This document shows, one piece after another, positions 4,174 through 23,999 of a DNA stretch of 64,000 nt. The position numbers and the translations under genes were made by a program. The notes below the pieces were generated by a model. It was not told the DNA's origin. It did not search any database and worked only from the letters and a program-made list of their open reading frames with translations. This DNA comes from Hyaloraphidium curvatum SAG 235-1 (Eukaryota > Fungi > Monoblepharomycota). The DNA is taken from assembly GCA_025558095.1 (NCBI GenBank), contig JAIVFI010000002.1, positions 682,001-746,000 on the forward strand, written 5' to 3'. Numbering within the stretch: position 1 is the first letter of the stretch; each line of letters opens with the position of its first letter.

Positions 4174-4243
4174 TAACACCAACGACGTCTATCCGGTCAC
4201 AGCACTACCATCTCTGTGCTCCGATCCCCGGCTTTTCACTGAC

Positions 4244-5229
4244 TCAAACCCGACGTACTACCTCGAGCCTATCCTCGACCCCCTCGAACGCCAACTTGTG
4301 ATACCCGGACTGAAAATGCGTGTTCAGATTGCCCAGGAGGCCCTTAGCCTTGTGCTTTACCAGATGGCACCACGGGAACGAGCATACCGCCACTTCGCCC
4401 TTGGTGGGGCTCCGGTACAGTTCGCCGGCGTACGTTCCGGCAATCTTCCATCGGAGGAAGGAGCCTGCCGGCACGGCATCAGGGACCTTCTTCGTCACCC
4501 GTTCCGCCTTCAAGCCCCAGACCGGCGACGACTTCTTCATCTGGCACATTCAGTGACGATCAGCGCTTGTGGGGCGTACTCCCGTCGAGCCGTTCACCTG
4601 CGCAATCTGCTCCCGGGCCTCCCCGCGCTGCACCACATGCCCCTCGTCTTTACCTGAAGTTGCCGTTTGGGCCGTCTGGAAGGCGCTCCCTTGTTCAGTG
4701 GCGGCCTCGAAGTCGCCTAAGTGGTCCAGCTCCCAAGAGGGCGCATGAAGCGTGACTGACAGCACGGGGACTTCGTCGGCCGCCTCGAGCTCCTCCCTCG
4801 AGTCCGCCGCCGACTCGCCCTCGCCGACGGAAGGCGCACCCTTCGACGACATCGCCGGCAGGAAGACGCCGGAGGTCCGGGTTGCGGCCGCGGCCGCGAT
4901 CGGGTCGTTGCCTCTGGCCCCGCCAGCCTCGCGCAGCTTGGCGGTCCCGCCGGCCTCGCGCAGCTCGGCGACGAGCCGACGGAGCACTCGGACCTCGACA
5001 ACGACGTTCCCAGCCTCTTCGGCCAGCGGCAACATCCCGCGCATGGCGGCCAGACGCACCAGTTGCAGGAAGCAGTCGACCACGTCGTCCTCCTGGCGCG
5101 GCGCTGAGCTCCCGTTCGAGGACCACGCCGCTACGCTCTTACCTTGGTGCACAGCAGGACGTCGAAGGTCGGCAACCGAACCTCGAACCACGAACTCGGC
5201 GGGACGACGTTCGGCAGCTCCGCACTCAT
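4244..5229 (-). CDS. Family A spliced antisense accessory gene (copy 2), about 292 aa with C-terminal BED-like zinc finger; exons 5229-5143, 5092-4598, 4540-4244
   Basis: Mirror image of 14362-15347. Two GT-AG introns (50 and 57 nt) join three reading frames in phase 0. Confidence 0.72.
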
Positions 5230-5368
5230 GACAGGCGCGGAGATCCCCCCAGCTCTTCTGGACCCTACGTCGCGATCCCCCGCGAGCGCTTTCGTCGACG
5301 CAATGGCGTACGGCCCTCGCTCGCGCCCCGTCCCCCGTGGCGGGGACTGGTGACCCGGTGTGCGGGCG

Positions 5369-5530
5369 AACTCGCGGTCGACTCGACTCGCAGTTGACTC
5401 GCGGTTGACTCGCGGTTGGCTCGCGGTTGACTCGCAAGTGACTCGCGAGTCACTCGCGAGTCGCTCGCAAGTCACTCGCGAGCGACTTGCGATGCACTCG
5501 CGAGTTGCCTGCGCTTCGCACCATATAAGC
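5369..5530. promoter_or_regulatory. Internal array of about 12 x 11-bp repeats (GACTCGCGAGT-like) plus TATA; putative bidirectional internal promoter
   Basis: Same repeat unit as LTR U3. CATATAA at about 5522-5528. Lies between the divergent ATGs at 5229 (-) and 5598 (+). Confidence 0.7.
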
Positions 5531-5597
5531 GGCGGACCACAGGAGGCCGCGGCCGCGGACTACGCACCCAACGTCGACCTCGCCGCTACCGTCTCCC

Positions 5598-6863
5598 ATG
5601 GCGACCCCCACGACTGCCGGCCACAACCTGCGGCCCCGCCGGCCGCATGTGGCCACGGCGCCGCCGCCGGCGACTGCGCCCGTCGCTGCGTTGCCTGGCG
5701 TCGTACCCCCGGACTATCGGTCGGCGCTTGCCTCCCTCTCGACCCGGCTGGACGACCTCCGGGCCGACCTCGACGTCAGACACTCCCAGACGACGGCCCA
5801 CTTGCACAAGGTCGAGCAGGCCGCCTTCTCCGCGGTCATGCCCATCCGCGCAGCCCTCGACGCACTCCACCCGGTGCTCAACACCCTCGTCAATGTCGGC
5901 AACCTGGAGCAGCACGCTCTTGACCGCGTAACGGCGACGCTCGAGCAGCAAGAGGCCCGCCTGGACGCCCAGATCCGCCAGCAGCGTGACGAGCTCCAGG
6001 TGGTCCTCAGTGGCCGCCACCGCGAACTTGAGTTCGCCGTCACCGCCTTGCGCCGGACCGACGACGCTCGTCTCGGTGCCATCGAGACGCAGCTCGACCG
6101 GCTTGCGTTGGTGCTCGAGGCTCAACGTCAGAACTTCAACGGCATTCTCCTGGTGGACGAAGCTACCATCGAGGAGTTGAGGGAGTTCGGCTCTTCCCTC
6201 GCCGGGCTGGTTGCTCAGACCGGGGCCAACCTCGAAACCACCATCGAGACCGTCGTCGAGACCAATCTCGCCCGTCACAACAATGGCCCCATGGCGGAGT
6301 TTGCGGCCGACCTCAAGAGCGTCCTGGCGGCCCATCTGCAGCGATTTGGGTCGGAGCAGCACAAGCAGCTCATGCTTTCAGCTCAAGACCACACCACGCT
6401 CCTCACGGCCGGCCTGAACGCGCAGCGCGAGCACTTCACCAAGACCGCCGACGAGCAACGGGCCCTCCTGCGTCGCTTCCTCGGCAATCAAGTGGCTCCC
6501 CTGGCGGGGCAAACGACGCCCGCCGTGGTCACCTCCACGCCGGTCGGCCGCGTCAAGGACGAGGACCTCGTCACCTCCGACGATGAGGCTGGGGATATGC
6601 AACCTCCAGCTCCTCGCCCCGAGAGCGTGTCCAGCAGCGACGCCTCCTCCATCGTCTCGCAGGACGACGGCCTCTTGGCCGCCCTGTACGACGACATCCC
6701 GGCCGCTCCCTACAAGTCGACCATGCCCCCGGTCTACACCCCCTCGGCCGCGGACGGCTCAGCCGTGCATGCCGCCTTCGCTCTCGGCTTTACCCGCCGG
6801 CTCCGCGCCCCGCCGCCGAGCGACGACGAGGCGGACGCCGACGTCGACTTTGAGGACGCCTAA
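5598..6863 (+). CDS. Family A accessory sense ORF, 421 aa (copy 2)
   Basis: Same ORF as 208-1473 and 12728-13993. Confidence 0.8.
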   Translation: MATPTTAGHNLRPRRPHVATAPPPATAPVAALPGVVPPDYRSALASLSTRLDDLRADLDVRHSQTTAHLHKVEQAAFSAVMPIRAALDALHPVLNTLVNVGNLEQHALDRVTATLEQQEARLDAQIRQQRDELQVVLSGRHRELEFAVTALRRTDDARLGAIETQLDRLALVLEAQRQNFNGILLVDEATIEELREFGSSLAGLVAQTGANLETTIETVVETNLARHNNGPMAEFAADLKSVLAAHLQRFGSEQHKQLMLSAQDHTTLLTAGLNAQREHFTKTADEQRALLRRFLGNQVAPLAGQTTPAVVTSTPVGRVKDEDLVTSDDEAGDMQPPAPRPESVSSSDASSIVSQDDGLLAALYDDIPAAPYKSTMPPVYTPSAADGSAVHAAFALGFTRRLRAPPPSDDEADADVDFEDA

Positions 6864-7005
6864 GCCACCCTTCGGTCCTACACTCTCCAACATCTGTTGT
6901 CTCCACCTCGGCCTTCAACATCTTCTACTGCAAGCGTGACGTCACTCCGCGGAGGATCTTCGATTTCGTGGCGCCGAGGGCGGCGCCTTCTTTTGGGTGG
7001 GGGCG

Positions 7006-7492
7006 TGCGAAGGTACAGGACGTCTGACATTCGGACAAGGGTATTTTCATTTTCGGTTCGGAGGCGTGGAGGCGTCGGTCCTCGCGATCGACTCGTGATC
7101 GACTCGTGATCGACTCGCGATCGACTCGCGAGTGACTCGCGAGTCACTCGCGAGCGACTCGCGAGCGACTCGCAAGTGACTCGGCACAGCCACCCTCCTG
7201 GGATATATAAAGAGCGGGACATGTAACAGTACAATCTTGATCGCCAGTTGACTCTACGTGCTCTCCGTGTCGTTCGACCACCGTGCGGAACCCCGCCCGG
7301 CCGGATCCTCGTTCTGAGAGCCCTTGGGACGCACCCCGGGAGACATCCCGTAACCTCTTTCCCCCGGCTACAGTCAAGTATCTTCAGCGCTGTTCGCTTA
7401 TTCATATTCAGGGCCTATCCGACCCGAAGAGCCGAGCGGGATTCGCGCGCCGGGTTAGAGCTTCAGGCCCGGTTCCGACCCGGACCGTCGCA
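7006..7492 (+). repeat. Family A LTR (487 bp), 3' LTR of copy 2
   Basis: TGCGA...TCGCA termini; PPT at about 6995-7005; about 9 units of the 11-bp repeat. Confidence 0.95.
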
Positions 7493-7677
7493 CACGCAGG
7501 CAATCGGCACCACACAGGCAAATATCGCCACACAGGCGGAAACGCGCCACACAGGCGATCGGCGCCACACAGGCGATCGGCGCCACACAGGCGAAGATGC
7601 GCCACACAGGCGAAGATGCACCACACAGGCAAGGATGCGCCACACAGGCGAGGATGCGCCACACAGGCGGAGAACAT
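7493..7677. repeat. Minisatellite, about 10 units of 18-19 bp (CACACAGGCGATCGGCGC-like)
   Basis: The CAC(A/G)CAGGC core recurs every 18-19 nt. Many unit variants are CG to CA/TG changes. Confidence 0.9.
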
Positions 7678-7689
7678 AGACGTACCATG

Positions 7690-8915
7690 CACCCCATGAG
7701 CCTGATCCTCAGCAATCATCGCATATTCCGGCGGTCTGTAAGGGCAATCTCGAGCAAGATGATCCGTCCCATAGCACACGTAACACTTGCGTCCTCCCGG
7801 TCCTCCCGGAAGCTGAGTGCGCTCGGTTTGCTGAGGTAGTGTGGGTGTTTGGATAGCAGGTCTGGGAACGGGCTGCGAGACCGGCGGGACGCCCATCCAC
7901 GACCACGTGCAGGCGCATAAGGGGCACCGCGCGTTTGGTACAGGCCTCGCGGGGGCGCACGCGAGGGAGGCTGCCCCTGTTGGGTCACGTAAGTAGGATG
8001 GTGGGCGACCGGGCGTCCATAAGTCGTGTGTCCGATCGAGTAAGGCTGATAACGCATCTGCGGATGGTACTGAGGACAACTGAGGATGCCACCACCATGG
8101 AGAGCTTGTTGGGGCAGCTGATAGGCAGCGAAGCCGGGTCCGAATCCAGCAGGGGGCGGGAGCGTCGCCGGAGCTGTCATCTTGACAGGTGCATGCGGCA
8201 TCTTGTTTCCTTGGGCTGTGTTAGCCGCATCCCGTATGCCATTGAAGGAGAATGTTATACTCTCGCTCTTGCCGTCTTCGTCAAAGTGCCCGTCCTCGTC
8301 AACGACTCGGCCCCAGAATCCTTGGAGTTCCGCGAACGGGAAACCTTCGGTGAACATCACCATCAGAGCCACGTCGTTCTGAGAGTGGTTTCTTGTGCGC
8401 AAGTCTCTCTGACTTGATGCTCAGCAGCTCGTTGAAGTTTTGGTCCACAGTCTTTGAAGCGTCCCACTGCCACTTGTTTACGCGGACTTGGGACGCGTGT
8501 ACCAAGCGCGCCTTTCCAACTTTGAACTTCTTGTGAATCGCGATCCAGAGGTCGTAAGCCGTCTTGCGCTCGTCGAATGCTTCCTGGAGGACGTCGTCGA
8601 GCATCAACATGAGCTCGCCGTAGGCCTTTTTGGCCGTCGTCCTGAACTTGTGTTCCGTGAGGATCGAGTGCACGGCCTTCTCTTCCTCGGCAAGGATGGT
8701 CTGCCTCTGCCGGTCTGTGCTTTCTGGAGCGGCGCTGCGCTCAGCAGCCCTCTTGCGGGCCTGCTCGAGCTGCCAGTCGATGCTGAGGACGTTGTTGACG
8801 ACCTACTCGTACACCCCGAGCTTGTTGAGGTAGATGGGGGCCTTGCGGTCCCACTGGACCATGTTTTCACCGGTGTTGAGCAGGATAGGCTTGTGGGCAT
8901 CGTTGGCTGTCATCC
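7690..8915 (-). pseudogene. gag: Degenerate Ty1/Copia-like gag
   Basis: Pieces LNTGENMVQW...IYL, KTAYDLWIAIHKKF (Copia gag/UBN2-like) and the zinc knuckle CYVCYGTDHLARDC. There is an in-frame TAG near 8805 and at least two frameshifts. Confidence 0.7.
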
Positions 8916-9826: not shown

Positions 9827-12087
9827 TGTCAGCGTCTGCCACGTCCGCTGTCGGCCTGAGCCTACTCACGGAACGTGTTTATGAGCCCGCAATGCCGCAG
9901 CACTGCCCAGTACGGCTTCGGAATTGGAACCGCCTGGCAAAGGGGCAGCCGATTTCGGGTCCGCCGGTGGCGTAAGACATCGCCACTCTCCCAGGATCGG
10001 ATCCGACAGATCCAATCCGCACCTAAGTGCTCCAGCGAAGGCTGGATTCGTACGCGAAAGCTGTAAGCAAAGGCTCGCGAGCGAAAAGGAGGTTGAGGAA
10101 AGGGACTTGGCACGCGAGCGCGCTCAAGTCAACGGGGACCGGAGTCCCCAGGAGTCAGAGATCACGATCACAGATGTATGTAGTCTACGAAGGGCTCGCG
10201 AGCGAATAGGAAGGGCAGCTTACAGCACACGAGGGCCGAAGCCGCAGGACTTAATTCCCCGGAGCCGCAGGACACAGTTCCCCGGACTTCCCTGTCCTTT
10301 GTGGACTTTGAAAGGAAGCCCGTGATGGAGTTCAGCTCATGCATCGAGCTGGCATGCGACGGTGTGAGGACTAGCCCTATCTGTGACTTAGGGTAGAGCG
10401 CTAGCGTGCAGCCCAGAGGCCATGCGCACAAACCCTTGTGCCTCACCGATTCTCACTACAATTACCCTTCGCCGCCTTGAGCCTCGCTCGGTCCTGCTAC
10501 GCCCTCTAGCAGCGCCCTAGGCCAGGATCTGCCCCCGATCCTGACAAAGTGAGAATCGGTCCGTGGAACGCGAGTTTCACGTAAAGCTCGGCTCAACAAG
10601 CGGCGGCGCGGCTACGACCAGGGCTGCGCAGCGTTCCTTTGCGTAGGTCACCGCAAGGACGCAGTTCATTACCTCGAACGTCGAGAAACGAACGATTTGA
10701 CGTCGGGGAAGGTTCGAAAGTTCAGGAATTCGGGGAGGAATTCGTCGGGAAGCAAGGGTGGACGTTGAATGGACTCAGCGCAACCGGCGCATCCTCGCTC
10801 AGACGACGAGGAATCGGACGAAGGAGCCTACGAGAGGCATCAGCAGCGCACTGACGACATCGACGACGTCGCAGGAGGCGTAGGAACGCGCGAGATTGAG
10901 GCGATTTTGCCGGATCAGCGAGAACCCGAACGCGTCGACGAACGCGCCGAAGAACGTCACGAATCCCGCTCGCCACCGCCAAGGAACACAATGGCGAACG
11001 CGAAGCCAGCAAAGCTGCCCGAAATGGCGAAGTTTTCGGGGCAGGCGCGGGATCTAGACAAGTTTTGGACGGAACTCGACTTGCGCCACTGGAACGACCG
11101 CCACTGGAACGACCCCGAGCGCTACGGAACCGAACAGAATCCGACCGCCACTTCTCGGATCATCTTGGCGATCGCGAACATGACCGGCGACGCGTCGGAA
11201 TGGGCTACTCAGAAGTTCAAGACGGGTGAAGTCACGGGCAAGACGTACGCGGAGTTCAAAACAATGGTAAACGAACGATTCGCGGACCCGCTCCTCAAGG
11301 AAAAGGCGCAAAAGAAACTTGATACCATGAAGCAAGGCAACAGGCCGTTCACCAGCTACAAGGAGTGTCAGGGACGCGTAAGCGAGGAACTCCTGACCTT
11401 CAACGGACTTCTGTACCTGCCGAACCGCGAGCTTCAGCTCGAGGTTCTCCAGACCCGCCACGACTCGAAGACGGCCGGACACTTGGGCACCGCGCGCACG
11501 CACGACCTGATCTCGCGCGACTTCTGGTGGCCCAGGATCTGGAACGACGTCAAGAACTACGTGCGGACGTGCGACACTTGCGCGCGCACCAAGGCGCCGA
11601 GGCACGCTCCTTTCGGACACCTGTACCCGCTCCCGATCCCGACCCGCAACTGGAGCTCGATCTCCATGGACTTCATCACCAAACTCCCGGTCTCCAAGGG
11701 CTGGGACTCGATCCTTGTCGTCGTGGACCGGCGATCGCGCCAGACCCATCTCGAGCCCTGTCGAGAGGCCATGACGGCCAAGGAGGTCGCCGAGCTCTAC
11801 GTTCGCGCCGTCTACCGTCATCACGGCATCCCCGACGTTCTCGTCTCCGACCGCGACCCCAAGTTCGTCGCCAAGTTCTGGAAAGAGCTGCACGCGATCC
11901 TGGGGACCAAGCTCAACATGTCATCGGCTTTCCACCCGCAGACCGACGGCATGCCGGAAAATAAGAACCAGACCATCGAGGCGTACCTCAGGAGCTTCAT
12001 CTCGTACCACCAGGACGACTGGGCGGACCTCCTTCCTCTTTGCGAGGCCGCGATCAACAACGCCCGCTCGGCCTCCACCGGAACCTC
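9827..12087 (+). mobile_element. Family B Ty3/Gypsy (Tf1-like) deletion derivative: putative 5' LTR about 9827-10546, self-priming PBS 10548-10560, gag-integrase fusion ORF
   Basis: TGTCAG (9827)...CTGACA (10546) termini; the left end is tentative. PBS AGTGAGAATCGGT is complementary to 10445-10457. Tf2-type integrase motifs follow. Truncated by the family A LTR at 12088. Confidence 0.7.
10769..12087 (+). pseudogene. In-frame gag N-terminal part fused to integrase; lacks PR, RT and RNase H; 3' truncated
   Basis: Gag-like MTGDASEW..F..RF..AQKKLDTMKQG runs directly into GLLYLP..RHDSKTAGHLG..CDTC, WSSISMDFIT, VSDRD and HPQTDG..E. Confidence 0.85.
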
Positions 12088-12585
12088 TGCGACGGTCCGG
12101 GTCGGAACCGGGCCTGAAGCTCTAACCCGGCGCGCGAATCCCGCTCGGCTCTTCGGGTCGGATAGGCCCTGAATATGAATAAGCGAACAGCGCTGAAGAT
12201 ACTTGACTGTAGCCGGGGGAAAGAGGTTACGGGATGTCTCCCGGGGTGCGTCCCAAGGGCTCTCAGAACGAGGATCCGGCCGGGCGGGGTTCCGCACGGT
12301 GGTCGAACGACACGGAGAGCACGTAGAGTCAACTGGCGATCAAGATTGTACTGTTACATGTCCCGCTCTTTATATATCCCAGGAGGGTGGCTGTGCCGAG
12401 TCACTTGCGAGTCGCTCGCGAGTCGCTCGCGAGTGACTCGCGAGTCACTCGCGAGTCGATCGCGAGTCGATCGCGAGTCGATCACGAGTCGATCACGAGT
12501 CGATCGCGAGGACCGACGCCTCCACGCCTCCGAACCGAAAATGAAAATACCCTTGTCCGAATGTCAGACGTCCTGTACCTTCGCA
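12088..12585 (-). repeat. Family A 3' LTR of copy 3 (498 bp)
   Basis: Reverse complement of the LTR, with about 10 repeat units. Confidence 0.95.
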
Positions 12586-12727
12586 CGCCCCCACCCAAAA
12601 GAAGGCGCCGCCCTCGGCGCCACGAAATCGAAGATCCTCCGCGGAGTGACGTCATGCTTGCAGTAGAAGATGTTGAAGGCCGAGGTGGAGACAACAGATG
12701 TTGGAGAGTGTAGGACCGAAGGGTGGC

Positions 12728-13993
12728 TTAGGCGTCCTCAAAGTCGACGTCGGCGTCCGCCTCGTCGTCGCTCGGCGGCGGGGCGCGGAGCCGGCGGGTA
12801 AAGCCGAGAGCGAAGGCGGCATGCACGGCTGAGCCGTCCGCGGCCGAGGGGGTGTAGACCGGGGGCATGGTCGACTTGTAGGGAGCGGCCGGGATGTCGT
12901 CGTACAGGGCGGCCAAGAGGCCGTCGTCCTGCGAGACGATGGAGGAGGCGTCGCTGCTGGACACGCTCTCGGGGCGAGGAGCTGGAGGTTGCATATCCCC
13001 AGCCTCATCGTCGGAGGTGACGAGGTCCTCGTCCTTGACGCGGCCGACCGGCGTGGAGGTGACCACGGCGGGCGTCGTTTGCCCCGCCAGGGGAGCCACT
13101 TGATTGCCGAGGAAGCGACGCAGGAGGGCCCGTTGCTCGTCGGCGGTCTTGGTGAAGTGCTCGCGCTGCGCGTTCAGGCCGGCCGTGAGGAGCGTGGTGT
13201 GGTCTTGAGCTGAAAGCATGAGCTGCTTGTGCTGCTCCGACCCAAATCGCTGCAGATGGGCCGCCAGGACGCTCTTGAGGTCGGCCGCAAACTCCGCCAT
13301 GGGGCCATTGTTGTGACGGGCGAGATTGGTCTCGACGACGGTCTCGATGGTGGTTTCGAGGTTGGCCCCGGTCTGAGCAACCAGCCCGGCGAGGGAAGAG
13401 CCGAACTCCCTCAACTCCTCGATGGTAGCTTCGTCCACCAGGAGAATGCCGTTGAAGTTCTGACGTTGAGCCTCGAGCACCAACGCAAGCCGGTCGAGCT
13501 GCGTCTCGATGGCACCGAGACGAGCGTCGTCGGTCCGGCGCAAGGCGGTGACGGCGAACTCAAGTTCGCGGTGGCGGCCACTGAGGACCACCTGGAGCTC
13601 GTCACGCTGCTGGCGGATCTGGGCGTCCAGGCGGGCCTCTTGCTGCTCGAGCGTCGCCGTTACGCGGTCAAGAGCGTGCTGCTCCAGGTTGCCGACATTG
13701 ACGAGGGTGTTGAGCACCGGGTGGAGTGCGTCGAGGGCTGCGCGGATGGGCATGACCGCGGAGAAGGCGGCCTGCTCGACCTTGTGCAAGTGGGCCGTCG
13801 TCTGGGAGTGTCTGACGTCGAGGTCGGCCCGGAGGTCGTCCAGCCGGGTCGAGAGGGAGGCAAGCGCCGACCGATAGTCCGGGGGTACGACGCCAGGCAA
13901 CGCAGCGACGGGCGCAGTCGCCGGCGGCGGCGCCGTGGCCACATGCGGCCGGCGGGGCCGCAGGTTGTGGCCGGCAGTCGTGGGGGTCGCCAT
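12728..13993 (-). CDS. Family A accessory sense ORF, 421 aa (copy 3)
   Basis: Identical protein to 5598-6863. Confidence 0.8.
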   Translation of the reverse strand: MATPTTAGHNLRPRRPHVATAPPPATAPVAALPGVVPPDYRSALASLSTRLDDLRADLDVRHSQTTAHLHKVEQAAFSAVMPIRAALDALHPVLNTLVNVGNLEQHALDRVTATLEQQEARLDAQIRQQRDELQVVLSGRHRELEFAVTALRRTDDARLGAIETQLDRLALVLEAQRQNFNGILLVDEATIEELREFGSSLAGLVAQTGANLETTIETVVETNLARHNNGPMAEFAADLKSVLAAHLQRFGSEQHKQLMLSAQDHTTLLTAGLNAQREHFTKTADEQRALLRRFLGNQVAPLAGQTTPAVVTSTPVGRVKDEDLVTSDDEAGDMQPPAPRPESVSSSDASSIVSQDDGLLAALYDDIPAAPYKSTMPPVYTPSAADGSAVHAAFALGFTRRLRAPPPSDDEADADVDFEDA

Positions 13994-14060
13994 GGGAGAC
14001 GGTAGCGGCGAGGTCGACGTTGGGTGCGTAGTCCGCGGCCGCGGCCTCCTGTGGTCCGCC

Positions 14061-14222
14061 GCTTATATGGTGCGAAGCGCAGGCAACTCGCGAGTGCATC
14101 GCAAGTCGCTCGCGAGTGACTTGCGAGCGACTCGCGAGTGACTCGCGAGTCACTTGCGAGTCAACCGCGAGCCAACCGCGAGTCAACCGCGAGTCAACTG
14201 CGAGTCGAGTCGACCGCGAGTT
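14061..14222. promoter_or_regulatory. Internal 11-bp repeat array plus TATA (copy 3)
   Basis: Reverse complement of 5369-5530. Confidence 0.7.
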
Positions 14223-14361
14223 CGCCCGCACACCGGGTCACCAGTCCCCGCCACGGGGGACGGGGCGCGAGCGAGGGCCGTACGCCATTGCGTCGACGAA
14301 AGCGCTCGCGGGGGATCGCGACGTAGGGTCCAGAAGAGCTGGGGGGATCTCCGCGCCTGTC

Positions 14362-15347
14362 ATGAGTGCGGAGCTGCCGAACGTCGTCCCGCCGAGTTCG
14401 TGGTTCGAGGTTCGGTTGCCGACCTTCGACGTCCTGCTGTGCACCAAGGTAAGAGCGTAGCGGCGTGGTCCTCGAACGGGAGCTCAGCGCCGCGCCAGGA
14501 GGACGACGTGGTCGACCGCTTCCTGCAACTGGTGCGTCTGGCCGCCATGCGCGGGATGTTGCCGCTGGCCGAAGAGGCTGGGAACGTCGTTGTCGAGGTC
14601 CGAGTGCTCCGTCGGCTCGTCGCCGAGCTGCGCGAGGCCGGCGGGACCGCCAAGCTGCGCGAGGCTGGCGGGGCCAGAGGCAACGACCCGATCGCGGCCG
14701 CGGCCGCAACCCGGACCTCCGGCGTCTTCCTGCCGGCGATGTCGTCGAAGGGTGCGCCTTCCGTCGGCGAGGGCGAGTCGGCGGCGGACTCGAGGGAGGA
14801 GCTCGAGGCGGCCGACGAAGTCCCCGTGCTGTCAGTCACGCTTCATGCGCCCTCTTGGGAGCTGGACCACTTAGGCGACTTCGAGGCCGCCACTGAACAA
14901 GGGAGCGCCTTCCAGACGGCCCAAACGGCAACTTCAGGTAAAGACGAGGGGCATGTGGTGCAGCGCGGGGAGGCCCGGGAGCAGATTGCGCAGGTGAACG
15001 GCTCGACGGGAGTACGCCCCACAAGCGCTGATCGTCACTGAATGTGCCAGATGAAGAAGTCGTCGCCGGTCTGGGGCTTGAAGGCGGAACGGGTGACGAA
15101 GAAGGTCCCTGATGCCGTGCCGGCAGGCTCCTTCCTCCGATGGAAGATTGCCGGAACGTACGCCGGCGAACTGTACCGGAGCCCCACCAAGGGCGAAGTG
15201 GCGGTATGCTCGTTCCCGTGGTGCCATCTGGTAAAGCACAAGGCTAAGGGCCTCCTGGGCAATCTGAACACGCATTTTCAGTCCGGGTATCACAAGTTGG
15301 CGTTCGAGGGGGTCGAGGATAGGCTCGAGGTAGTACGTCGGGTTTGA
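14362..15347 (+). CDS. Family A spliced antisense accessory gene (copy 3): exons 14362-14448, 14499-14993, 15051-15347; about 292 aa, C-terminal C-x4-C-x16-H-x5-H BED-like finger
   Basis: Intron 1 is AAG|GTAAGA...GCTCAG...CCAG| (50 nt). Intron 2 is CAG|GTGAAC...GCTGAT...CCAG| (57 nt). Each removes an in-frame stop and is phase 0. The protein ends AVCSFPWC...GNLNTHFQSGYH. Confidence 0.75.
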
Positions 15348-15417
15348 GTCAGTGAAAAGCCGGGGATCGGAGCACAGAGATGGTAGTGCTGTGACCGGAT
15401 AGACGCCGTTGGTGTTA

Positions 15418-18400
15418 CTAGCGACGCCGAGTCCGCATGCGCCTGGGGAGACCCGTCGGGAGCTGGAGACCAACGCGATCGGCATAGGCGCGGACGATCC
15501 CTATGGCGCCGTGCAACATGTCCAGAGGGAGCTTGGTCGTGCGAGCGAAGCCCCGCCACTTGACCTCGAACTTGAGTCCGTGACCCTGGCCCTCGTGGCC
15601 GACGATGTCCTCGACGGTGTACTCCTGCTCGTTCCCAAGCGCGTTCTCGACCTCGATTTCCTCTTCGAACTCGTTCACCGGTTCCGAGAGATCGAGCTCT
15701 TCACCGGCGGCGAGCTCCGGGGCGCGTGCGTTCCACGAGCGCGCGTTGAAGGTGGCCGACTCCCAAGGCTTGTAGCGCGCCAGCCGGTCCACATGCACAG
15801 TGGTGACGTGGTCGGTCTCGTAGACGTGTCTACACTTCCAGGTGAGCTCGGTGTGGCCTGACTCCTCGATGCGGTAGGGCCCAAGATAACGAGAGACGAA
15901 CTTGCCCGGCTCGCCCTTGCGCGGTCGTTCTGGTCCCCAGATGAGCACGAGGTCGCCGGGGCGGAAGGTAATCGGAAGCCGGGTAGCGTTGGCCTTGGCG
16001 TTCCGAGTCTCCGCCGCTGCGGCCATCTTCTCGGCCACCAGGTCGTAGGCCGCACGAAGCTGCGCCACGAGCTCCACGACGTAGGTCCGCCGGCGCTCAT
16101 CCTCTGTCTTCTTGTCCTCCTCGTCGCTGGCCCGCAGGTGCACTGGCTCGCGAATCTCGGTCTCGTCGTAAAGTAGGTCGAGCGGAATACGAGCATCCCG
16201 ACCATGCATCAGAAAGAACGGAGTTTCGCCGGTCGTCGCGTGGATGGAGGTCCGGAAGGCAAAGATGACCCCCACGATGTCCTCGTCCCATGTCTGGTAG
16301 TTCTTGGAGACCGCTGCGCTCAGGGCGTCGATGATCCACCGGTTCGGGCGCTCCGCGAGGGAAGCCCTGGGATGCCCAACCGTGACCAGGCCCCGGTTGA
16401 TGCCGAGTAGCTTGAGCAGGTACTCCATGTAATGGTTGTCCAGGTTCGAGGCGTTGTCGTGGTGAATCCGCTTCGGAAGACCGTGCTCGAGAATCCATCG
16501 CGTATAGAGCAGCTTCGCCGTCGTCGGCCCAGAGAGGTCCGGAGTCGGATACGCCGCGACCCATTTAGTGAACGGATCGTAGACGACGAGAAGGTACTTG
16601 TTGCCGCGGGGCGTGGCCGGATTGATCTCGCCGATGTAGTCGATGTAGATGTCCTCGTTGGGACCTGTGAGAGGAACCGATTTCAGTAAGCCCTGGTTCG
16701 ATACCGAAGGCATCTTCCGGGTCATGCATGTAAGGCAGGCTCGCGTCCAGCGGCGAACGTCGTGCGCCATGCCGACCCAATATACGCGGCGCCGCAGATT
16801 GCTGTACGCCCGGTGTCGCCCGACGTGCCCGCTCAGGGGATCGTCGTGCGCACGTTGCAGGTAGGCCTCCCTCAGCTCGTGCGGTATCACGAGCTGGGTG
16901 ACCGGGATACGACGGGTACCAGTCGCGAGTACATCGCGCCGGCAGAGCACGCCGTCCGTAGCGAGGAAGTACTGCTCGCCGTACTTCTTGCAGAATTTGG
17001 CCAGATTCACGTTGGGAGGGAGCTCCCCGTCTCGCACGAAGCGGATCAGCGCGCTGGTCTCGACGTCGGCTTCTTGCACTTTGCGCAAGGCATCCCGGGA
17101 TCTGACGTCGGCAAGGTCAATAGCACTGATGCCCCCGACATCGGGTAGCACCTCAAGCAGTGCCGGATGAAGGAACGCCAGGTCTCGCTCAGGCACGTCT
17201 GCCGGGTCGACCTGTGCGTTCGTCGTTGGGATCGGCAGGAGGATCTGCGTCTCCGGTGCCGCAGCCTCGGGCAGGGTCCCCGGATCGCTCCACAGGGTTC
17301 CCTCCACTGCGGCAACCGTGGCCGGGAACTCCGTGCCAGACAGCACTCGCTCCATTGATTCACAATTGACTGAGGAACCCGCAGTAGCTCGTCCCGAGTC
17401 TGACTCGGTGACTGGGGTTGACGAAGAACGGGAAGTCTGACCGAGATCACTCCCGGAGAGGAATCCGGGCGCCCGTCCCCCCCCAGAAAAAGAAGAAAAA
17501 GGCAAGGGGTCGGGAGGGTTTGGGGGCCAAAAGGCAGGGATGTCCAAGATTTCCTCGGGGTCGCCCATAGGCACGTCCTCGTCGGGCGACGGCGCCACGA
17601 GCTGACGAGACAGGAAGTCGGCGTTGGAGTTCGCTTTGCCCGAGCGATGGATGATCTGGAACCTGAAGTCCGAGAGCCGGAGGATCCAGCGCTGTAGGCG
17701 GCCCGGCTTGGAGGTCTCCAAGAGCCATTTGAGGGCGCTATGGTCGGTGACCACCTCAAACTCGTCCCCGATCAAATACGCCCGGAAATGCTCGCATGCC
17801 CAAACAACGGCCAGGGCTTCGCGCTCCCGAGTGTCCCACTTGCGCTCGTTCGGCTGCAGAGCGCGGCTGGCGTAGGCGATGACGTACTCCTTGCCATCGG
17901 AGTCCCGCTGGCTGAGCACCGCGCCGAGGCCGATATCGCTGGCATCCGTGAACAAGACGAAGCGCTTGGAAAAGTCGGGGCGACGGAGCACGGGCGCCGA
18001 CGTAAGCCGTTCCTTTAGCATACGGAAGGCGGCCTCGCATGCGTCGTCCCAGGCCCGAGAGACCGAGACGCCGTCCTGCGTCAGGCGGGTGAGCGGGCTG
18101 GCAATGTTGGCGTAGCCGGCAATGAAGGGGCGATAGTAGTTGGAGAGGCCGAGAAACGATTGGAGCTCCTTCTTGGTCGTTGGGCGGGGGAACTGGTCCA
18201 CCGCGCGGGTCTTCTCGGGGTCGACCTTGAGGCCGTCGGCGGTGACGTAATGCCCGAGGTATTTGACCTCGCGGCGGAAGAACTTGCATTTGGCCAGCTT
18301 CAGAGTCATCCCGGCCTCGCGCAGTCGGTCAAAGAGGAGCTCCAGGTGCACGAGGTGCTCGTCGACCGTCTGCGAGAAGATAATGATGTCGTCGATGAAG

Positions 18401-20468
18401 ACCACCAAGCAGTACCACTGGAGGCCGGCGAGGAGCTCGTCCGAGCAAAGGTTGCAGGAGCGTTGGTAAAGCCCATGGCCATCCGCTCCCACTGGTAGAG
18501 ACCGCGGTGCGTCGTGAAGGCCGTCTTTTCCTTGTCCTCGTCGGCCACCTCCACGTGCCAAAAGCCGGAGCGGATGTCGCAAACGCTCCACACCTTGGCC
18601 GCGCTGAGGAGAGCGAGAGTGTCGCTTGGGTTCTTCATCGGGTAGACGTCGCGCTTGGTGGCGGCGTTGAGCTTCCGGTAATCGATCACCAGGCGCCATT
18701 CGCCCGAGCCGTGCCCTTTTGGCACCATGATGCAGGGCGTGGCCCAGGGGCTTCGCGAGGGGACGACTACGCCCTGCACGAGCAGGTCGTCGATGATCTT
18801 GTCCATTTCCCCGCGAAGCCGGAACGGGGTCCGGTACGGCATCTGGTGGATCGGCTTGAGGTCGCCCGTGTCGATCCGGAAGCGATGGTTGCGCAGCTTG
18901 CCGATCCAAGGACCAAACACGTCCCGGTAGCGGTCGCAGAGCTTATGGAAACGAGGTTTGTCCCCCTCGCTCAGGATCGTTTGGTCCATCTTGAGCTCGA
19001 TAGCCTCGACCGGAGGAGGCTCCACGCCGGGAGGCTGAGGTGGTCCAATCGATCCCGGCGAGGGCACCGCGAACAGATCGATGGTCTCCTCGACCGTGAG
19101 CGTGGATTCGGCCGGTTCGGTGTGGGGCAGCTCGGGCTCCAGCATCGAGATCTGCGCGGGAGCCAGATACGTGGGCGGTTCCGGAGCGAGAAATCCAGGA
19201 ATCCGCACGCGGAAGCGGCCGAGGTGGGTGCCCGGGCCGATCGTGACCGGTGTCGTCCCGTAGTTGCGGATGAGAATCGGCAGCCGACCGTCTCTGTCGG
19301 GCGTCGCCGACGGGATGATGAAGAGGCGATCGAACGGCGAAGTGTTCGGCGTCTCGATGACCCCTGTCAAGTCCATCTCCACGACGGTCGCCAAGGGAGT
19401 CGTCGGGGCCAGCTCAGCGGTGATCGAGACGTCCTCGTTGGGGTAGACCGTGATGGAGGTGGTTGAATGGAGCGGGGCGACCAGGTGTGATCCGAAGAGC
19501 GGTCGCGCAACAATGTGCATTGGCACGACGACCCCCTCCGGATCGTCCTTGAAATAGAGGACCGGCGTCTCCCAGTCCATCTGAACGCGTAGGGCGGAGA
19601 GCCAAGGGGTGCCGAGGATCACGTCGTCCATGAGACCGTCCATGATGGCGACGTCCATGACGCAGTGTTGATTCCCGACCAGGATGTCCATCTTAGCAAC
19701 TCCGCGGACCCACATGGTTCCGCCGGCCGCGGCCGTGCTGAGGGTGCCGAGTGTCCATGGTTTGATCGGTGGCGACGGGTGGATCCGGCAGAAGAAGGAC
19801 GACCGAACCGCCACCACTGAGGCACCGGAGTCGACGAGGGCCGCGGGGGTATTCACGCCGTTGACCCATGCCGAAACGCGTGCCGCCTGATAGTGGAACT
19901 GCACTTGCGAAGTCCACGTCCAGCGATCCGGCGGAGGGGCGACCGGAGCAGGTGGCCGCGGGCGAGGCCGAGGGCCAGGCAGCGGTGGTCGTGCGTAGGC
20001 GGAAGGAGGAGGGGGCCTTTCGAAAGGTCCGGGAACGGCGCGGACGGTCGGGCCCTCGTGCATAGGTGCATCCGCTGATCCCGCGTCCGCATCCTGTGCC
20101 GCCGGTTCACCGTTTCCCACGACCTCGACCGAGCCGGGCGACGCCGAATCCGCTGCCGGCGGCGGGGCCAGGGTCTCGTCGATCGGCATGAGCGCCTCCC
20201 GCTGCTGACGAACGGCGGCCTGTCGAGCTGCCTCCGCCTCGAGGAAGAGGATGTACTCCGTGCCCCCGAAGGGCCAATGATGAACGTGGTCCTCCGCCGT
20301 CGGTTCATCGGTCGCGGAATCCGACAACTCCGGCGATCCGCCAGGAGATGAAGGGTCCGTGCCGTCCGGCAGCGGGGAAGTTCCAGGAAGAGGTTCCACA
20401 TGTGGTTCAAGAGCTTGGATCTCTGCCCCCCTATGGCCGTGCGGCACTGAGGGCAAAGCTAGTTTTTT
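15418..20468 (-). pseudogene. pol: Family A pol (protease, RT, RNase H, integrase, chromodomain) with a frameshifting small deletion near 18443
   Basis: LVDSGA protease; IDYRKLN, GFTNAPATF and FIDD in RT; TDAS, EREALA and TDH in RNase H; integrase DDE; chromodomain. The frame breaks between PATFAR and DELLAGL. Confidence 0.95.
20421..20468 (-). other. Programmed -1 ribosomal frameshift signal: A AAA AAC (20468-20462) plus downstream stem-loop
   Basis: Gag ends CCA AAA AAC TAG and pol is open in the -1 frame (GCC AAA AAA CTA). CTTTGCCCTC can pair with GGGGGCAGAG downstream. Confidence 0.8.
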
Positions 20469-22114
20469 GGCATCGAAGGGGTGTTGCCGAGGCGAGACTT
20501 CCAGTTGAGTGGGCGGCGGTTGGCATTCTTCTCCAACTCCCAGCACTCGTCCTGAGCATGCCCATCCATGCCACAGAGATGGCAGTGGCGAGGCTGGAAG
20601 CGCTTCTGGTCGCGGTACTCCGAGGTGAAGGGCCGGCGATCCTGGCGCTCCTGCTGCTGGCGGGGCCGATCGATCGGAGGAGGCCTCGCGGGGGGGTTCG
20701 ACCTGGTCTCCGCGGCCTGAACCTGATGGCGAGGCGACGGCAGCAGCTTGGTGATGAGCTCCTTGATCTCGACGAGGTCGCTGTTCGGCCCCGAAGGCGG
20801 CAACGGCTGGCTCCGACGAGACTGGAAGGGGACGAAACGGCGCGGAGGCCGGAACGCAGACTCCCCCGGCGGTCCACCGGTGGGCCTGCGCTCTCCCTTA
20901 GGCTCCAGCAGCTTTGTGAGAGCCTGCGTATGAGCCAGCAGCACTTCCGTCGTCGCCTTGTCGGTCGCCTTGGAGGAGCCCGAAGACGAGTGCTGGCCGA
21001 CCAGAGCCGGAATCTCCGAAATCGAGTTCTGGCCCAGGAAACGGATGTCGCGCGGCTGCGCAGGGCCCGATGCTTGCATGACGGTGCGCATCTTCTCGAT
21101 GACCTTGGTGACGGAAGTGCGGTTGATGAGGTGATCCCCGAGGAGCTCCAGCGCCTTCCCGCGTAGCTCCGGGCGCAGTCCGTAGAGCAGGTTCTGGCCG
21201 TACACGCTGTCTTGCACTTCCCTGGTAGGAAGCTGATCGCCGCAGTGCGAGAGGAAACGCGTCTCGGCCAGGGATACGCGGGCAACGAAGGCGTCGAGGG
21301 TCTCATCGTTGGTCATCTGAATCGTGTTGTAGTGCCGGCGATAATGCATCGATGCGTCGCGGGGCTCGAAGTGGTAGCGTAGCCAGGCAAGCACATCGTT
21401 CTGGGTCACCGGAGGATAGGTGGCCGTCGCGGGATAGTCCGGAGGGCGGTTCTGCGGCGTGATGTTGTGCCACATTGCGCGCGGCAGAGGCCCAAGGAAG
21501 ACCGGGAAGACCTTGACGAGGTTGTTGATGGAGCCGAACGCCGTGAGAACCGTAGTGAGGTCGCGGAAGAAGTCTTCCGGGTCCTGCGTAGCGGGATCGA
21601 AGGGCTGAACAGAAGCAGGCAGCAGCTGAGCCGGGAGCTTGGCGGCTCCGCCCTGGCGATCCGCCTGGGGGAGGCCGGTGCTTCCATCGTTCGGCGGCTG
21701 AGCGCCAACGATGGCCCGTACGGCGTCGACGAACTGCTGCGGCTGGAGACCAGCGGCGGCAGCGTTGACAGCCTGGGCTTGCTCGCTCCGCTGACCCTGC
21801 TGCTGTGCGGCGAGCTGCTGGAGCTGCTGCGCTGCAAGCTGCTCGGCGGCGGCTTGCTGTTGAACTTGGGCAGCTGGCAACTGCTGAGCGGTCTGTTGCG
21901 CCACGAGCTGAGCGGCAAGCTGATCGGCGACGGCTTGCTGGGCGGCTTGCTGGGCGGCGAGTTGGGCGACGTCGTTGGCGGCGGCGCCGACTTGCTGGAT
22001 CGCGGCCTGCGCAGCTTGGATAATCGCCTGGGCCTGCGGGTTGTTCTGCAAATCGTTAGCTTCCTGAGGCTGCTGAACCTCCTGCTGAGGGGCGGCTTCT
22101 TGAACGGGGTCCAT
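20459..22114 (-). CDS. gag: Family A gag (about 551 aa; Q/A-rich N-terminus, capsid-like core, CCHC knuckle)
   Basis: ATG at 22114 (MDPVQE); CHLCGMDGHAQDEC zinc knuckle; located just after the PBS. Confidence 0.9.
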   Translation of the reverse strand: MDPVQEAAPQQEVQQPQEANDLQNNPQAQAIIQAAQAAIQQVGAAANDVAQLAAQQAAQQAVADQLAAQLVAQQTAQQLPAAQVQQQAAAEQLAAQQLQQLAAQQQGQRSEQAQAVNAAAAGLQPQQFVDAVRAIVGAQPPNDGSTGLPQADRQGGAAKLPAQLLPASVQPFDPATQDPEDFFRDLTTVLTAFGSINNLVKVFPVFLGPLPRAMWHNITPQNRPPDYPATATYPPVTQNDVLAWLRYHFEPRDASMHYRRHYNTIQMTNDETLDAFVARVSLAETRFLSHCGDQLPTREVQDSVYGQNLLYGLRPELRGKALELLGDHLINRTSVTKVIEKMRTVMQASGPAQPRDIRFLGQNSISEIPALVGQHSSSGSSKATDKATTEVLLAHTQALTKLLEPKGERRPTGGPPGESAFRPPRRFVPFQSRRSQPLPPSGPNSDLVEIKELITKLLPSPRHQVQAAETRSNPPARPPPIDRPRQQQERQDRRPFTSEYRDQKRFQPRHCHLCGMDGHAQDECWELEKNANRRPLNWKSRLGNTPSMPKN

Positions 22115-22281: not shown

Positions 22282-22757
22282 TGCGACGGTCCGGGTCGGA
22301 ACCGGGCCTGAAGCTCTAACCCGGCGCGCGAATCCCGCTCGGCTCTTCGGGTCGGATAGGCCCTGAATATGAATAAGCGAACAGCGCTGAAGATACTTGA
22401 CTGTAGCCGGGGGAAAGAGGTTACGGGATGTCTCCCGGGGTGCGTCCCAAGGGCTCTCAGAACGAGGATCCGGCCGGGCGGGGTTCCGCACGGTGGTCGA
22501 ACGACACGGAGAGCACGTAGAGTCAACTGGCGATCAAGATTGTACTGTTACATGTCCCGCTCTTTATATATCCCAGGAGGGTGGCTGTGCCGAGTCACTT
22601 GCGAGTCGCTCGCGAGTCGCTCGCGAGTGACTCGCGAGTCACTCGCGAGTCGATCGCGAGTCGATCACGAGTCGATCGCGAGGACCGACGCCTCCACGCC
22701 TCCGAACCGAAAATGAAAATACCCTTGTCCGAATGTCAGACGTCCTGTACCTTCGCA
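22282..22757 (-). repeat. Family A 5' LTR of copy 3 (476 bp)
   Basis: TG..CA termini; about 8 repeat units. Confidence 0.95.
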
Positions 22758-23999
22758 GGAGGCAGCACCGTCAGCGCGAGTACCGCCGTCCTATCTGGTG
22801 GGTCTTCTCGCACGTTGGGCACGGGTTCGAACGCGGGCGAAGTCGTCGGACCCCTGGTCGAGTCCAAGAACGTCGAGGAGATCAAGGTTCCCGCGACCGA
22901 TGGCTCCCTTCCGAAGCCAGCTTCGCAGGGAACCGCTGTCGCGGATCCGCCGAGCAGGAGCTCCGGCACAGAAAGCAACGCGGTCGGCGGATCCCTGCCG
23001 AAGCCCGCATCGCATGGATCGGATGTCGCGGCAGCCGCTCCCGCGTCCCCCATCGCCCCCGTGGGCACCAGCAGGCTGCTCATCAACGAATCGGACGTCA
23101 CCATCAACCGCAACAAGATCCTCGGCGAAGGCTCGTTCGGCACCGTGTACGAAGGCGTCCTGCTGGGATCGACGCACGTGGCGATCAAGGTCGGGCGCGG
23201 TGCCTTCGACAACGCGGCAGCCCAGGCGTTCGCCAAGGAGGTCAAGAACTGGGAAGGACTCGCGCAGAGGAACGGTGGGAGGCACCAGGATGCAGCCGCA
23301 CGGAAAGCAATTGACAACGCCCTTTTCCCTCGCAGTGCTCCCGCTCCTTGCGTATTGCGCCTCGCCGCCCATGATGATCTCCGAGATCGCCGACGGCGGC
23401 AACCTCCGCCAGCACCTGGCCGCCCGCGCCTGGGATCAAGCCCTCGGCCTGCGCTTCCTCCTTGACGTGAGCCGCGGCATGGCGTACCTGCACTCGGTCG
23501 GCATCCTCCACGGCGACCTCAAGTCCGCCAACGTGCTCGTCGACGGCTCGCGCGCCCTGGTGTGCGACTTTGGCCTCTCGCGGTTCCGCCAGGCCGGCAC
23601 TGGAACGGCCACCCATGGAGCCACGTCGCACAACGGCGGGCTGATGGGCACGGTCGGCTTCATCGCGCCCGAGATGATGCAGGGCGGGTCGCTCAGGCCG
23701 CCGGCGGACGTTTTCGCGTTCGCCATGACGTGCTACGAGGTCGTCAGCAGGGGCAAGTATCCGTTCCAGGATGCTCCGAACGTCATGGCGGTGGGTACCA
23801 TCCCCGGCGATCGCCATCCGCGAAGCTGATCCGCTCCCTGCAGATCTTCTACGCCGTGGCCGTCGAGAAGAGCAGGCCCGCGCGGCCGGAAGGCGTCCGC
23901 GACGACGTGTGGGCGCTCATGGAGAGGTGCTGGGCCCACGAGCCGGCCGAGCGCCCGCGGTTCGTCGAGGTCCGCGACGCGCTTTCGGGGATGGTCTGA
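22758..23999 (+). CDS. Tyrosine kinase-like (TKL) protein kinase, 5'-truncated by the LTR; introns 23275-23335 and 23791-23843
   Basis: GEGSFG, VAIK, HGDLKSANVL, DFG, GTVGFIAPE, DVFAF and CW...RP motifs are all intact. Confidence 0.9.

Follow-up and report, generated by a model that had tools for sequence, protein, structure and literature searches.

A Ty3/Gypsy element of Hyaloraphidium curvatum with two head-to-head accessory genes and a repeat array common to its LTR and a putative internal promoter

Why would a retrotransposon without an env gene carry two additional genes and a promoter-like repeat array between pol and its 3' LTR? This question is raised by a recently active Ty3/Gypsy element of Hyaloraphidium curvatum, which lies on the minus strand (22757-12088, copy 3) of a 64-kb stretch of DNA, here called the window. 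Both of its extra proteins match Hyaloraphidium curvatum records. About 2.8 kb separate the pol stop (15418) from the polypurine tract (12596-12586) in copy 3, and the two head-to-head accessory genes and the array that the first-pass annotation had placed in this interval were confirmed in coordinates and layout. The element and its further copies are delimited as follows:

22282-22757, minus strand: 5' LTR of copy 3, 476 bp, TG...CA ends, about 8 array units and TATATAAA
22263-22280, minus strand: likely PBS, TGG 1 base past the LTR, tRNA not assigned
12586-12596, minus strand: polypurine tract
12088-12585, minus strand: 3' LTR of copy 3, 498 bp, 10-unit array at 12397-12510, TATATAAA at 12376
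2048-7492, plus strand: copy 2, the element's 3' half, matching 17543-12088, cassette intact, LTR at 7006-7492
1-2047, plus strand: copy 1, 3' end with part of the array, TATA, 421-aa ORF and LTR at 1616-2047 (about 4 units)

The window contains no tRNA gene. The cassette is intact in copies 2 and 3, as had been proposed, and copy 1 is a 3' part that begins inside the internal array; it abuts the pol of copy 2, in which it is likely nested. Outside the LTR array, copies 2 and 3 differ at 3 single positions, with both accessory frames kept in copy 2, and the four LTRs are identical there (over 386 positions in each comparison, the 5' LTR of copy 3 does not differ from any of the other LTRs). 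As an insertion, copy 3 is not clean: it lacks a target-site duplication (flanks CCTCC and GAGGT), and its RT is frameshifted near 18439, where the putative RNA run X1 and the DNA run X2 have 7 extra letters. The missing duplication bears on the history of copy 3, a recombinant or an assembly join, and not on the family.

The class of the element follows from its ends and its coding order, with two direct LTRs bounded by TG...CA and a pol arranged as protease-RT-RNase H-integrase, as in Ty3/Gypsy elements:

20459-22114, minus strand: gag of 551 aa, rich in Gln and Ala at its N-terminus and with a CCHC knuckle close to its end
15418-20897, minus strand: pol with protease, dUTPase-like spacer (weak), RT, RNase H, integrase and chromo-like tail

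An A-AAA-AAC slippery site lies at the gag stop, with pol in the -1 frame; the 551-aa gag ORF has no Pfam gag match, and its CCHC knuckle is visible in the sequence. Ty3 RT is the closest solved structure to the element's RT (E 3e-40). The integrase C-terminus reached E 0.013 and 15.8 bits against the chromodomain PF00385, below the 25.1 cut-off. In a quick RT tree, built without named reference chromoviruses, the nearest row was P0002 (SH-aLRT 90, long branch), and all pol relatives found were 39-48% identical in RT/RNase H. The search for gag-pol relatives with the same cassette, suggested at the outset as a check, returned none; it covered 81 distant Gypsy loci, and in only 14 of them did the sequence after the integrase extend for at least 1.5 kb.

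The first accessory gene is encoded antisense to the element in three exons, with a product of 292 aa:

14362-14448, plus strand: exon 1, coding, 29 codons, joint 14446>14497 (GT..AG) in X1
14499-14993, plus strand: exon 2, encoding a helical segment and a low-complexity linker, with a 27-bp duplication that keeps the frame
15051-15347, plus strand: exon 3, predicted BED-like Cys2His2 finger

That this gene is spliced, as the first-pass annotation had it, is borne out by GT..AG joints for both predicted introns in X1, a run whose RNA status is a guess and which provides the splicing support by itself; neither joint occurs in the DNA runs X2 and X3, and DNA records span intron 2 unspliced. The splicing of both introns gives the gene its antisense direction. 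Since the genomic RNA carries the other strand, these introns would not be lost when it is reverse-transcribed. The 155-nt leader from the internal array to the antisense start codon is free of ATGs, against 21 ATGs counted from the 3' LTR array, which favours an internal start. At the other end, only 70 nt separate the antisense stop from that of pol, and an overlap of the antisense 3' end with pol is therefore probable. X1 and the DNA run X3 also contain a deletion variant (14579>16619) that removes the finger, so that some copies manage in cis without it.

In X1, contigs had a depth of 611 across exon 1 and the 421-aa ORF, 198 across exons 2-3 and 38 across gag and 5' pol. The pattern resembles subgenomic expression, yet genes cannot be ranked by contig depth, which was therefore not used as evidence. 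One X1 contig bridges the internal array, which does not imply a single transcript, and X1 cover is missing in R/U5 and at the gag start, which proves nothing. Among the joints listed, none linked the 5' leader with the 421-aa ORF, in a part where cover was likewise missing.

The second accessory gene runs head-to-head with the first, in the sense direction, and its reading frame (13993-12728) was recovered as originally described:

12728-13993, minus strand: sense accessory ORF of 421 aa, with long helices predicted at 38-303 and a disordered, acidic tail

When the region was dinucleotide-shuffled 1000 times, 8 shuffles contained an ATG-initiated ORF at least as long. Both accessory genes have a gag/pol-like codon usage that is best in the annotated frame of six, with a GC3 of 0.81-0.84. 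The 421-aa protein contains neither Cys nor Trp. It was considered as an env product and rejected, as its 19-residue hydropathy peaks at 1.2 and it has no Cys and no membrane span. Its only match among 7996 scored candidates came from its own species; no occurrence was confirmed among 598 metagenomic stretches, and all Atlas scores stayed under 0.8. Fold searches with a pLDDT-58 model gave no hit at E<=0.001, and no viral fold matched at that threshold.

Could the antisense product bind DNA? Its exon 3 encodes the motif C247-x4-C252-x16-H269-x5-H275 (15207-15293), a predicted Cys2His2 finger. A paralogue in H. curvatum, P0017 (DFJ74DRAFT_753412, E 4e-11), which may be a host or a DNA-transposon gene, keeps 4 of the 4 predicted zinc ligands; identities between the two proteins amount to 39/86 in the finger region, 28/120 in the linker and 16/80 in the N-terminus. 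W202 and W225 as well as C247, C252, H269 and H275 are common to both, and the antisense protein thus has the conserved aromatics and the Cys2His2 pattern of BED fingers. Its Atlas look-alikes, among them zf-C2H2_12 and zf-BED, the latter making up 12% of one cluster, scored 0.90-0.94, in a range (at least 0.9) that 4-10% of shuffled proteins also reach. The designation as a zinc-finger gene stands on the motif, the paralogue and the Atlas leads, and it lacks support from Pfam: the BED profile PF02892 gave no match above threshold in the antisense protein or P0017, and no Pfam family matched exon 3 or P0017 even at E 10. Judged from its sequence, the antisense product carries a conserved, predicted Cys2His2 domain, and its nearest look-alikes include BED-type fingers. 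Single Cys2His2 fingers can also bind RNA or protein.

Further relatives of the finger are scarce. None of 36 candidates proved related to exon 3, and a full HMMER scan gave 2 matches, P0017 and P0018. The latter, a bacterial surface protein, was judged a chance match. Locus L084 (tblastn E 0.008) was likewise dismissed; it lacks the ligands and was missed by a two-sequence profile. Exon 3 was found in none of 49 viral stretches, its only PDB match was KLF5 (E 0.42), and the single-sequence fold of the finger protein was unusable (pLDDT 40). For neither accessory protein was a cellular orthologue found outside H. curvatum.

A candidate target for such a finger lies between the two genes:

14086-14206, no strand: internal array, 11 units in exact 11-bp register, near-palindromic core TCGCGA
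14062-14069, minus strand: internal TATA-like box CATATAAG, 19 nt past the last array core, 75 nt before the 421-aa ORF ATG

The TATA-like box faces the 421-aa ORF only. Arrays of about 4, 9, 10 and 8 units recur in the four LTRs, and LTR and internal arrays have an exact run of 24 nt in common. All 16 occurrences of ACTCGCGAGT in the 64-kb window fall inside LTR or internal arrays; elsewhere in the window the word does not occur, so it is no widespread promoter word of the host there. Likewise, ATATAA occurs 7 times on both strands of the 64 kb, each time in one of the four LTRs or one of the three internal modules; the window's host DNA (41 kb) contains none. The distance from array to ATATAA is 19 nt in the internal module and 18 nt in the LTR when the degenerate last unit is counted (29 nt without it). 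The proposal that the LTR U3 is built from the same module thus holds for the array and the TATA spacing and fails for the flanks, which do not align, and 'LTR-like' is limited accordingly; the spacers between array and ATATAA are unrelated in LTR and internal module. The array could form a hairpin or cruciform of about -45 kcal/mol (calculated without a shuffle control), a trivial result of its palindromic units. A pattern search also found short look-alike arrays in 3 viral contigs; a convincing protein link was absent, and they were treated as convergence.

We consider, at close to an even chance and from sequence, that the finger protein binds the array in both the LTR and the internal module and thereby regulates the element, more likely by switching it on. 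In such a circuit the internal array may act as a two-way promoter, TATA-directed towards the 421-aa ORF and TATA-less towards the finger gene. Oligomers of the finger protein, joined through its N-terminal helix, would cover the near-palindromic TCGCGA sites, which are helically phased; occupied arrays would feed back on both the LTR and the internal promoter, with LTR unit number (about 4 to 10) tuning the response. The 421-aa coiled-coil protein with its acidic tail would most likely serve as co-factor or scaffold, which is the weakest step. Two animal systems offer analogies: the core TCG(C/T)GA is required by ZBED1, a BED-finger protein (PMC7471704), and TCTCGCGAGA supports two-way, copy-number-dependent, methyl-sensitive transcription in human cells (PMC6192621).

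Both analogies would fit a host factor equally well, and it is possible, if rather unlikely, that the arrays are host-factor sites duplicated simply for accessory-gene expression, while the proteins act after transcription, for example in particle or nuclear transport, in the handling of RNA or as suppressors of RNA silencing. The CTCGCGAG-core palindrome is a host promoter element in vertebrates (PMC6192621), and two single CTCGCGAG sites (10074 and 10195) lie just upstream of an unrelated Ty3 fragment; however, the window's host genes (41 kb) contain no CTCGCGAG. Post-transcriptional roles would accord with the coiled-coil ORF3s (PMC5408684) and dsRNA-binding-like extra ORFs (PMC12844716) reported for other LTR elements, whereas the best look-alikes of the antisense protein include DNA-binding BED-type fingers.

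The cassette might instead act as a brake that limits copy number, with the finger as array-bound repressor and/or an antisense RNA pairing with genomic RNA. We hold this to be improbable, because the family has just spread, as the identity of the four LTRs outside the array indicates. Antisense transcription is seen in X1, the putative RNA run, its probable overlap with pol would suit pairing, and antisense RNAs have been discussed as inhibitors of LTR elements (PMC7264820), but contigs cannot give strand or extent of the 3' read-through. Highly improbable in our view is captured cargo with no role in the element's cycle, be it a pair of host genes or part of a DNA transposon with BED finger and repeats. 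The absence of the cassette from the 81 distant Gypsy loci, only 14 of them with at least 1.5 kb after the integrase, would agree with cargo, and the copies are too young to show decay; yet the array is also built into the LTR ahead of its TATA box, the accessory genes have the element's codon usage, and the search outside H. curvatum yielded no cellular orthologue of either protein.

Self-regulation through the array therefore remains our preferred reading. The H. curvatum element combines an intact, spliced antisense gene for a binding-type domain with a candidate target in both promoters, and together these reduce the question of function to one binding and one reporter assay. Positive outcomes would establish that a retrotransposon without env encodes its own transcriptional switch, and would provide a compact, orthogonal pair of factor and site for use in early-diverging fungi. 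A bolder extension, which we think doubtful, is that the control logic of foamy viruses evolved independently here: a BED-like finger would have been recruited, and copies of the array it binds placed in the LTR as well as in a two-way internal promoter, to form a two-protein activator with positive feedback (the finger binding DNA, the coiled-coil/acidic protein activating), and diverged sister families, perhaps that of P0017, would carry their own finger-array pairs.

In the literature searched, we found no precedent for an array common to LTR and internal promoter beside a BED-like finger. The initial contrast with 'simple' Gypsy elements was nevertheless overstated, as Grande, Retand and Boty had already been described. 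Elements with antisense additional ORFs after pol and ahead of the 3' LTR (aORF-3R) comprise maize Grande with its gene23, rice RIRE2 and Silene Retand. Grande, itself Ty3/Gypsy, has a separate promoter for its antisense gene, whose product is nuclear; in Retand, tandem arrays occupy the pol-3' LTR interval in about half of the recently active elements; and a regulatory role of aORF-3Rs is proposed and unproven (PMC7264820, PMC11963269). Like these, the H. curvatum element is a Ty3/Gypsy element with an antisense ORF, transcribed according to X1 as putative RNA run, between pol and 3' LTR. Unlike these, it has a fungal host, two introns, a BED-like finger and a second, sense, non-env gene head-to-head, and no TRP28 domain (PF04195 had no Pfam match in exons 2 and 3 or P0017). 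Its array is common to LTR and internal module, a sharing that was not found reported for Retand. Boty of Botrytis/Sclerotinia, with brtn, is another Gypsy element of fungi in which pol is followed by an antisense accessory gene (PMC7264820, 10.1101/2021.04.13.439636); it has one extra gene, and no array common to its LTR and interior was found reported.

More distant parallels concern regulation. In VANDAL, a plant DNA transposon, the element-encoded anti-silencing protein VANC targets family-specific tandem repeats in non-coding regions (PMC5735166); the candidate targets here are likewise tandem repeats, and CpG-rich; no match to the VANC family was found. In foamy virus, a second promoter before the 3' LTR drives Tas/Bet, and one of the products binds there as well as at the LTR (PMC4929722). 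By analogy, the H. curvatum element has a putative second promoter in this position, with dual binding as a proposal; it differs in lacking env, in its antisense candidate regulator and in having tandem 11-bp repeats as sites, and no sequence or fold link to foamy virus was found. Finally, the antisense protein resembles DREF/ZBED1 (PMC7471704) in the aromatics ahead of its Cys2His2 pattern and differs from them in a C-terminal finger of atypical spacing that lies below Pfam detection; hAT transposase domains were not found. The ZBED1 core TCG(C/T)GA is present in 9 of 10 LTR cores and 4 of 11 internal cores.

Self-comparison of the window revealed three copies of one Ty3/Gypsy family, the longest of which (copy 3) carries an accessory cassette between pol and its 3' LTR.

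Features of the family and of the copy 3 cassette (window coordinates)
22757 to 12088, minus strand: copy 3
2048-7492, plus strand: copy 2, matching 17543-12088 at 99.7%
1-2047: copy 1, another copy of which the 3' end is present, its LTR abutting pol of copy 2
13993-12728, minus strand: sense accessory ORF, 421 aa
14449-14498, plus strand: intron 1 of the antisense gene, 50 nt, GT..AG
14994-15050, plus strand: intron 2 of the antisense gene, 57 nt, GT..AG

From its junction with copy 2, copy 1 is read as a nested insertion in pol. All four LTRs start with TG and end with CA, and outside their repeat arrays (about 4, 9, 10 and 8 units) they show 0 differences in 386 positions each; judged by this identity, the family is very young. 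Copy 3 encodes a gag of 551 aa with a CCHC knuckle, which stops at a slippery A-AAA-AAC, followed in the -1 frame by pol with protease, RT, RNase H, integrase and a sub-threshold chromo-like tail. Among solved structures the best relative is Ty3 RT. The RT of copy 3 is frameshifted near 18439, where X1 (a putative RNA sequencing run) and X2 (a DNA run) have 7 more letters. The segment between protease and RT (19101-19481, minus strand) has a dUTPase-like look and matched only Herpes_ORF11 (E 0.19); rotifer and basidiomycete elements are reported to have a dUTPase at this pol position (PMC5408684).

No target-site duplication was found at the flanks of copy 3. Its 3' LTR cuts the integrase of an unrelated Ty3 fragment (10769-12087, gag fused in frame to integrase, without RT and RNase H), and its 5' LTR borders a tyrosine-kinase-like ORF (22713-23829, plus strand) and runs into it in frame, so that a host kinase gene may have been interrupted, or given a new head, by the insertion. 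Copies 2 and 3 (1-7492 and 12088-17543) form a 5.4-kb inverted repeat of 99.7% identity, with a 4.6-kb spacer made up of fragments from other elements; the flanks of copy 3 derive from different targets, which suggests that insertions have recombined or that the assembly contains a join here. Directly after the copy 2 LTR lies a different tandem array (7493-7673, 19-bp unit, about 9 copies), with broken Copia-type gag ORFs downstream (8299-8802, minus strand; PF14223, E 8e-5). CTCGCGAG occurs singly at two places, 10074 and 10195, upstream of the Ty3 fragment. Hyaloraphidium curvatum is a freshwater monoblepharid, and its ordinary host genes occupy 26772-54092, where 7 of the 17 ORFs that were scanned could be assigned to a family: ABC transporter, nitronate monooxygenase, GATA factor, BRCT protein, GH1 glycosidase, alpha-galactosidase and dipeptidyl peptidase IV.

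In copy 3, 2.8 kb separate the pol stop from the PPT. The first-pass annotation had placed here a spliced antisense gene, an 11-bp array with TATA and a sense 421-aa ORF; this anatomy is confirmed, and both the splicing and a conserved paralogue add strength to it. With 292 codons in three coding exons, the antisense gene has two introns, both of which had been predicted beforehand from frame and GT..AG ends. Comparison with four runs recovered exactly the two predicted joints, GT..AG on the plus strand, in X1 only; neither occurs in the DNA runs X2 and X3 (one sample), whose records span intron 2 unspliced. These plus-strand joints show that the gene is antisense to gag-pol and transcribed, in one run, X1, whose RNA status is a guess. 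X1 and X3 also contain a variant with a deletion that brings 14579 next to 16619, likely a non-autonomous derivative, which would shorten the antisense protein to 62 residues without the finger and also removes the integrase end, while array and 421-aa ORF are kept. A sister family in the same organism is present in both runs, ~89-93% identical over 18235-18680 and 16299-16507.

The last exon of the antisense gene encodes C247-x4-C252-x16-H269-x5-H275, with two tryptophans ahead. This exon matched no Pfam family even at E 10 and, in the PDB, only a KLF5 finger (E 0.42); a single-sequence structure model of the protein was unusable. Atlas look-alikes, at similarity scores of 0.90-0.94, include clusters where 12% of members have zf-BED or 84% have zf-C2H2_12, and serve only as a lead. 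HMMER, run in full against 1.84 billion representatives, returned 2 matches, one bacterial and dismissed as chance, the other P0017 (E 4e-11), a 274-aa H. curvatum paralogue which aligns over the whole length and retains all four ligands and both tryptophans. The proposed zinc finger is supported as a predicted Cys2His2 domain. Identity to P0017 is higher in the finger region (39/86) than in the linker (28/120), which implies selection on the finger domain.

The sense ORF exceeds the length reached in 992 of 1000 shuffles, and its gag/pol-like codon use is best in its own frame. Residues 38-303 are predicted to form long helices, and the tail after them to be acidic and disordered (mean pLDDT 58). 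The protein has neither a membrane span nor a cysteine and is not an env. The protein is 99% identical to a H. curvatum record and matches another member of the same cluster at 420/421, and beyond such own-species records, protein, metagenome, Atlas and fold searches returned no relatives or fold matches. Its suggested role as coiled-coil partner of the finger protein is unsupported so far.

The internal array consists of 11 units that keep exactly to an 11-bp register, close to one turn of the helix; their core, TCGCGA, is near-palindromic. Period and core recur in the LTR array, which is about 80% identical to the internal one and shares an exact run of 24 nt with it, and all 16 occurrences of ACTCGCGAGT in the window fall in arrays. 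In both modules ATATAA follows in the element's sense, internally 19 nt past the last core, in the LTR 18 nt past the degenerate last unit and 29 nt past the last full core; counting both strands, it occurs 7 times in the window, each time in one of these modules and never in the 41 kb that is host DNA. Outside the arrays the LTR cannot be aligned with the internal region, so that what the two have in common is the array and not a second copy of the LTR. The common array-then-TATA module claimed earlier therefore stands for array, core and following ATATAA, and fails for the flanks. The internal TATA-like box points to the 421-aa ORF, whose ATG follows 75 nt on with no earlier ATG. No TATA was found for the antisense gene, whose ATG is the first after the internal array; 21 ATGs lie between the 3' LTR array and that ATG. 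An internal two-way promoter would be the simplest reading of this box and ATG position, although one X1 contig bridges the array. Short 11-bp-period CTCGCGAG arrays in three unrelated viral contigs (L001 5990-6032, L002 near 5100, L003 6000-6034) are apparently convergent.

Relatives of the element were matched at 24-32% identity in the integrase region and at 39-48% in RT/RNase H, the latter in 80 metagenome loci, the best of 317, and in 1 locus from a viral collection. The first-pass annotation had called for a search of gag-pol relatives for the cassette: neither accessory protein has a relative encoded at any of these 81 loci, only 14 of which reach integrase with at least 1.5 kb beyond. 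In P0002, the nearest pol relative found, RT is preceded by a Dam-type adenine methyltransferase domain (PF05869, E 2e-7), and there is a chromodomain as well.

The self-regulation proposed for this cassette is a reasonable hypothesis. We tentatively favour, at somewhat less than even likelihood, regulation of the element by a finger protein that would bind the array in each of the two promoters; since the family spread only recently, it would more probably activate than repress. Both arrays would have to act as promoters, the finger protein would have to bind them, and binding would have to activate. The BED protein ZBED1 is reported to require a core TCG(C/T)GA (PMC7471704), and the CGCG element TCTCGCGAGA, in human cells, to direct transcription that runs both ways, depends on copy number and is sensitive to methylation (PMC6192621); these analogies make such binding plausible, not proven. 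The CGCG element fits equally well the main rival, less probable in our view, in which the arrays would be read by a host factor, with both accessory proteins acting after transcription.

The deletion variant counts against a strict need for the finger in cis. A self-activating switch is judged less likely than not. That the cassette is a brake, by repression or antisense RNA, is improbable, the recent spread favouring activation over repression; that it is inert cargo is more improbable still. An anti-silencing role of the finger protein would need cytosine methylation in the host, and only low adenine methylation is reported for Monoblepharomycota (PMC11258239).

Foamy-virus Tas, reported to bind LTR and internal promoter (PMC4929722), and VANC, for which tandem repeats are described as targets (PMC5735166; PMC12844716; PMC12859917), serve as working models for the finger protein at both arrays and for an element-encoded protein targeting tandem repeats, both only proposed here. 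Our literature search, covering titles and abstracts and few subscription papers, found no description of this element, no BED-like accessory gene in an LTR retrotransposon and no array common to LTR and internal promoter. Antisense ORFs lying in the interval from pol to the 3' LTR have been described for Grande, RIRE2, Retand, PvRetro13 and fungal Boty, and the HTLV analogy has already been made for them (PMC7264820). The Grande gene is reported to have its own promoter and a nuclear protein (PMC7264820), and brtn is named as the antisense gene of Boty (PMC7264820; 10.1101/2021.04.13.439636). For Retand, antisense ORFs are reported in all recently active clusters, with function unknown, a predicted DNA-binding TRP28 domain in 97% of them, and family-specific tandem arrays in about half of the elements (PMC11963269); coiled-coil third ORFs are described in rotifer elements (PMC5408684). 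We file the element under a known class, Gypsy elements with antisense accessory genes, within which its two divergent genes and a promoter array common to the LTR are unusual.
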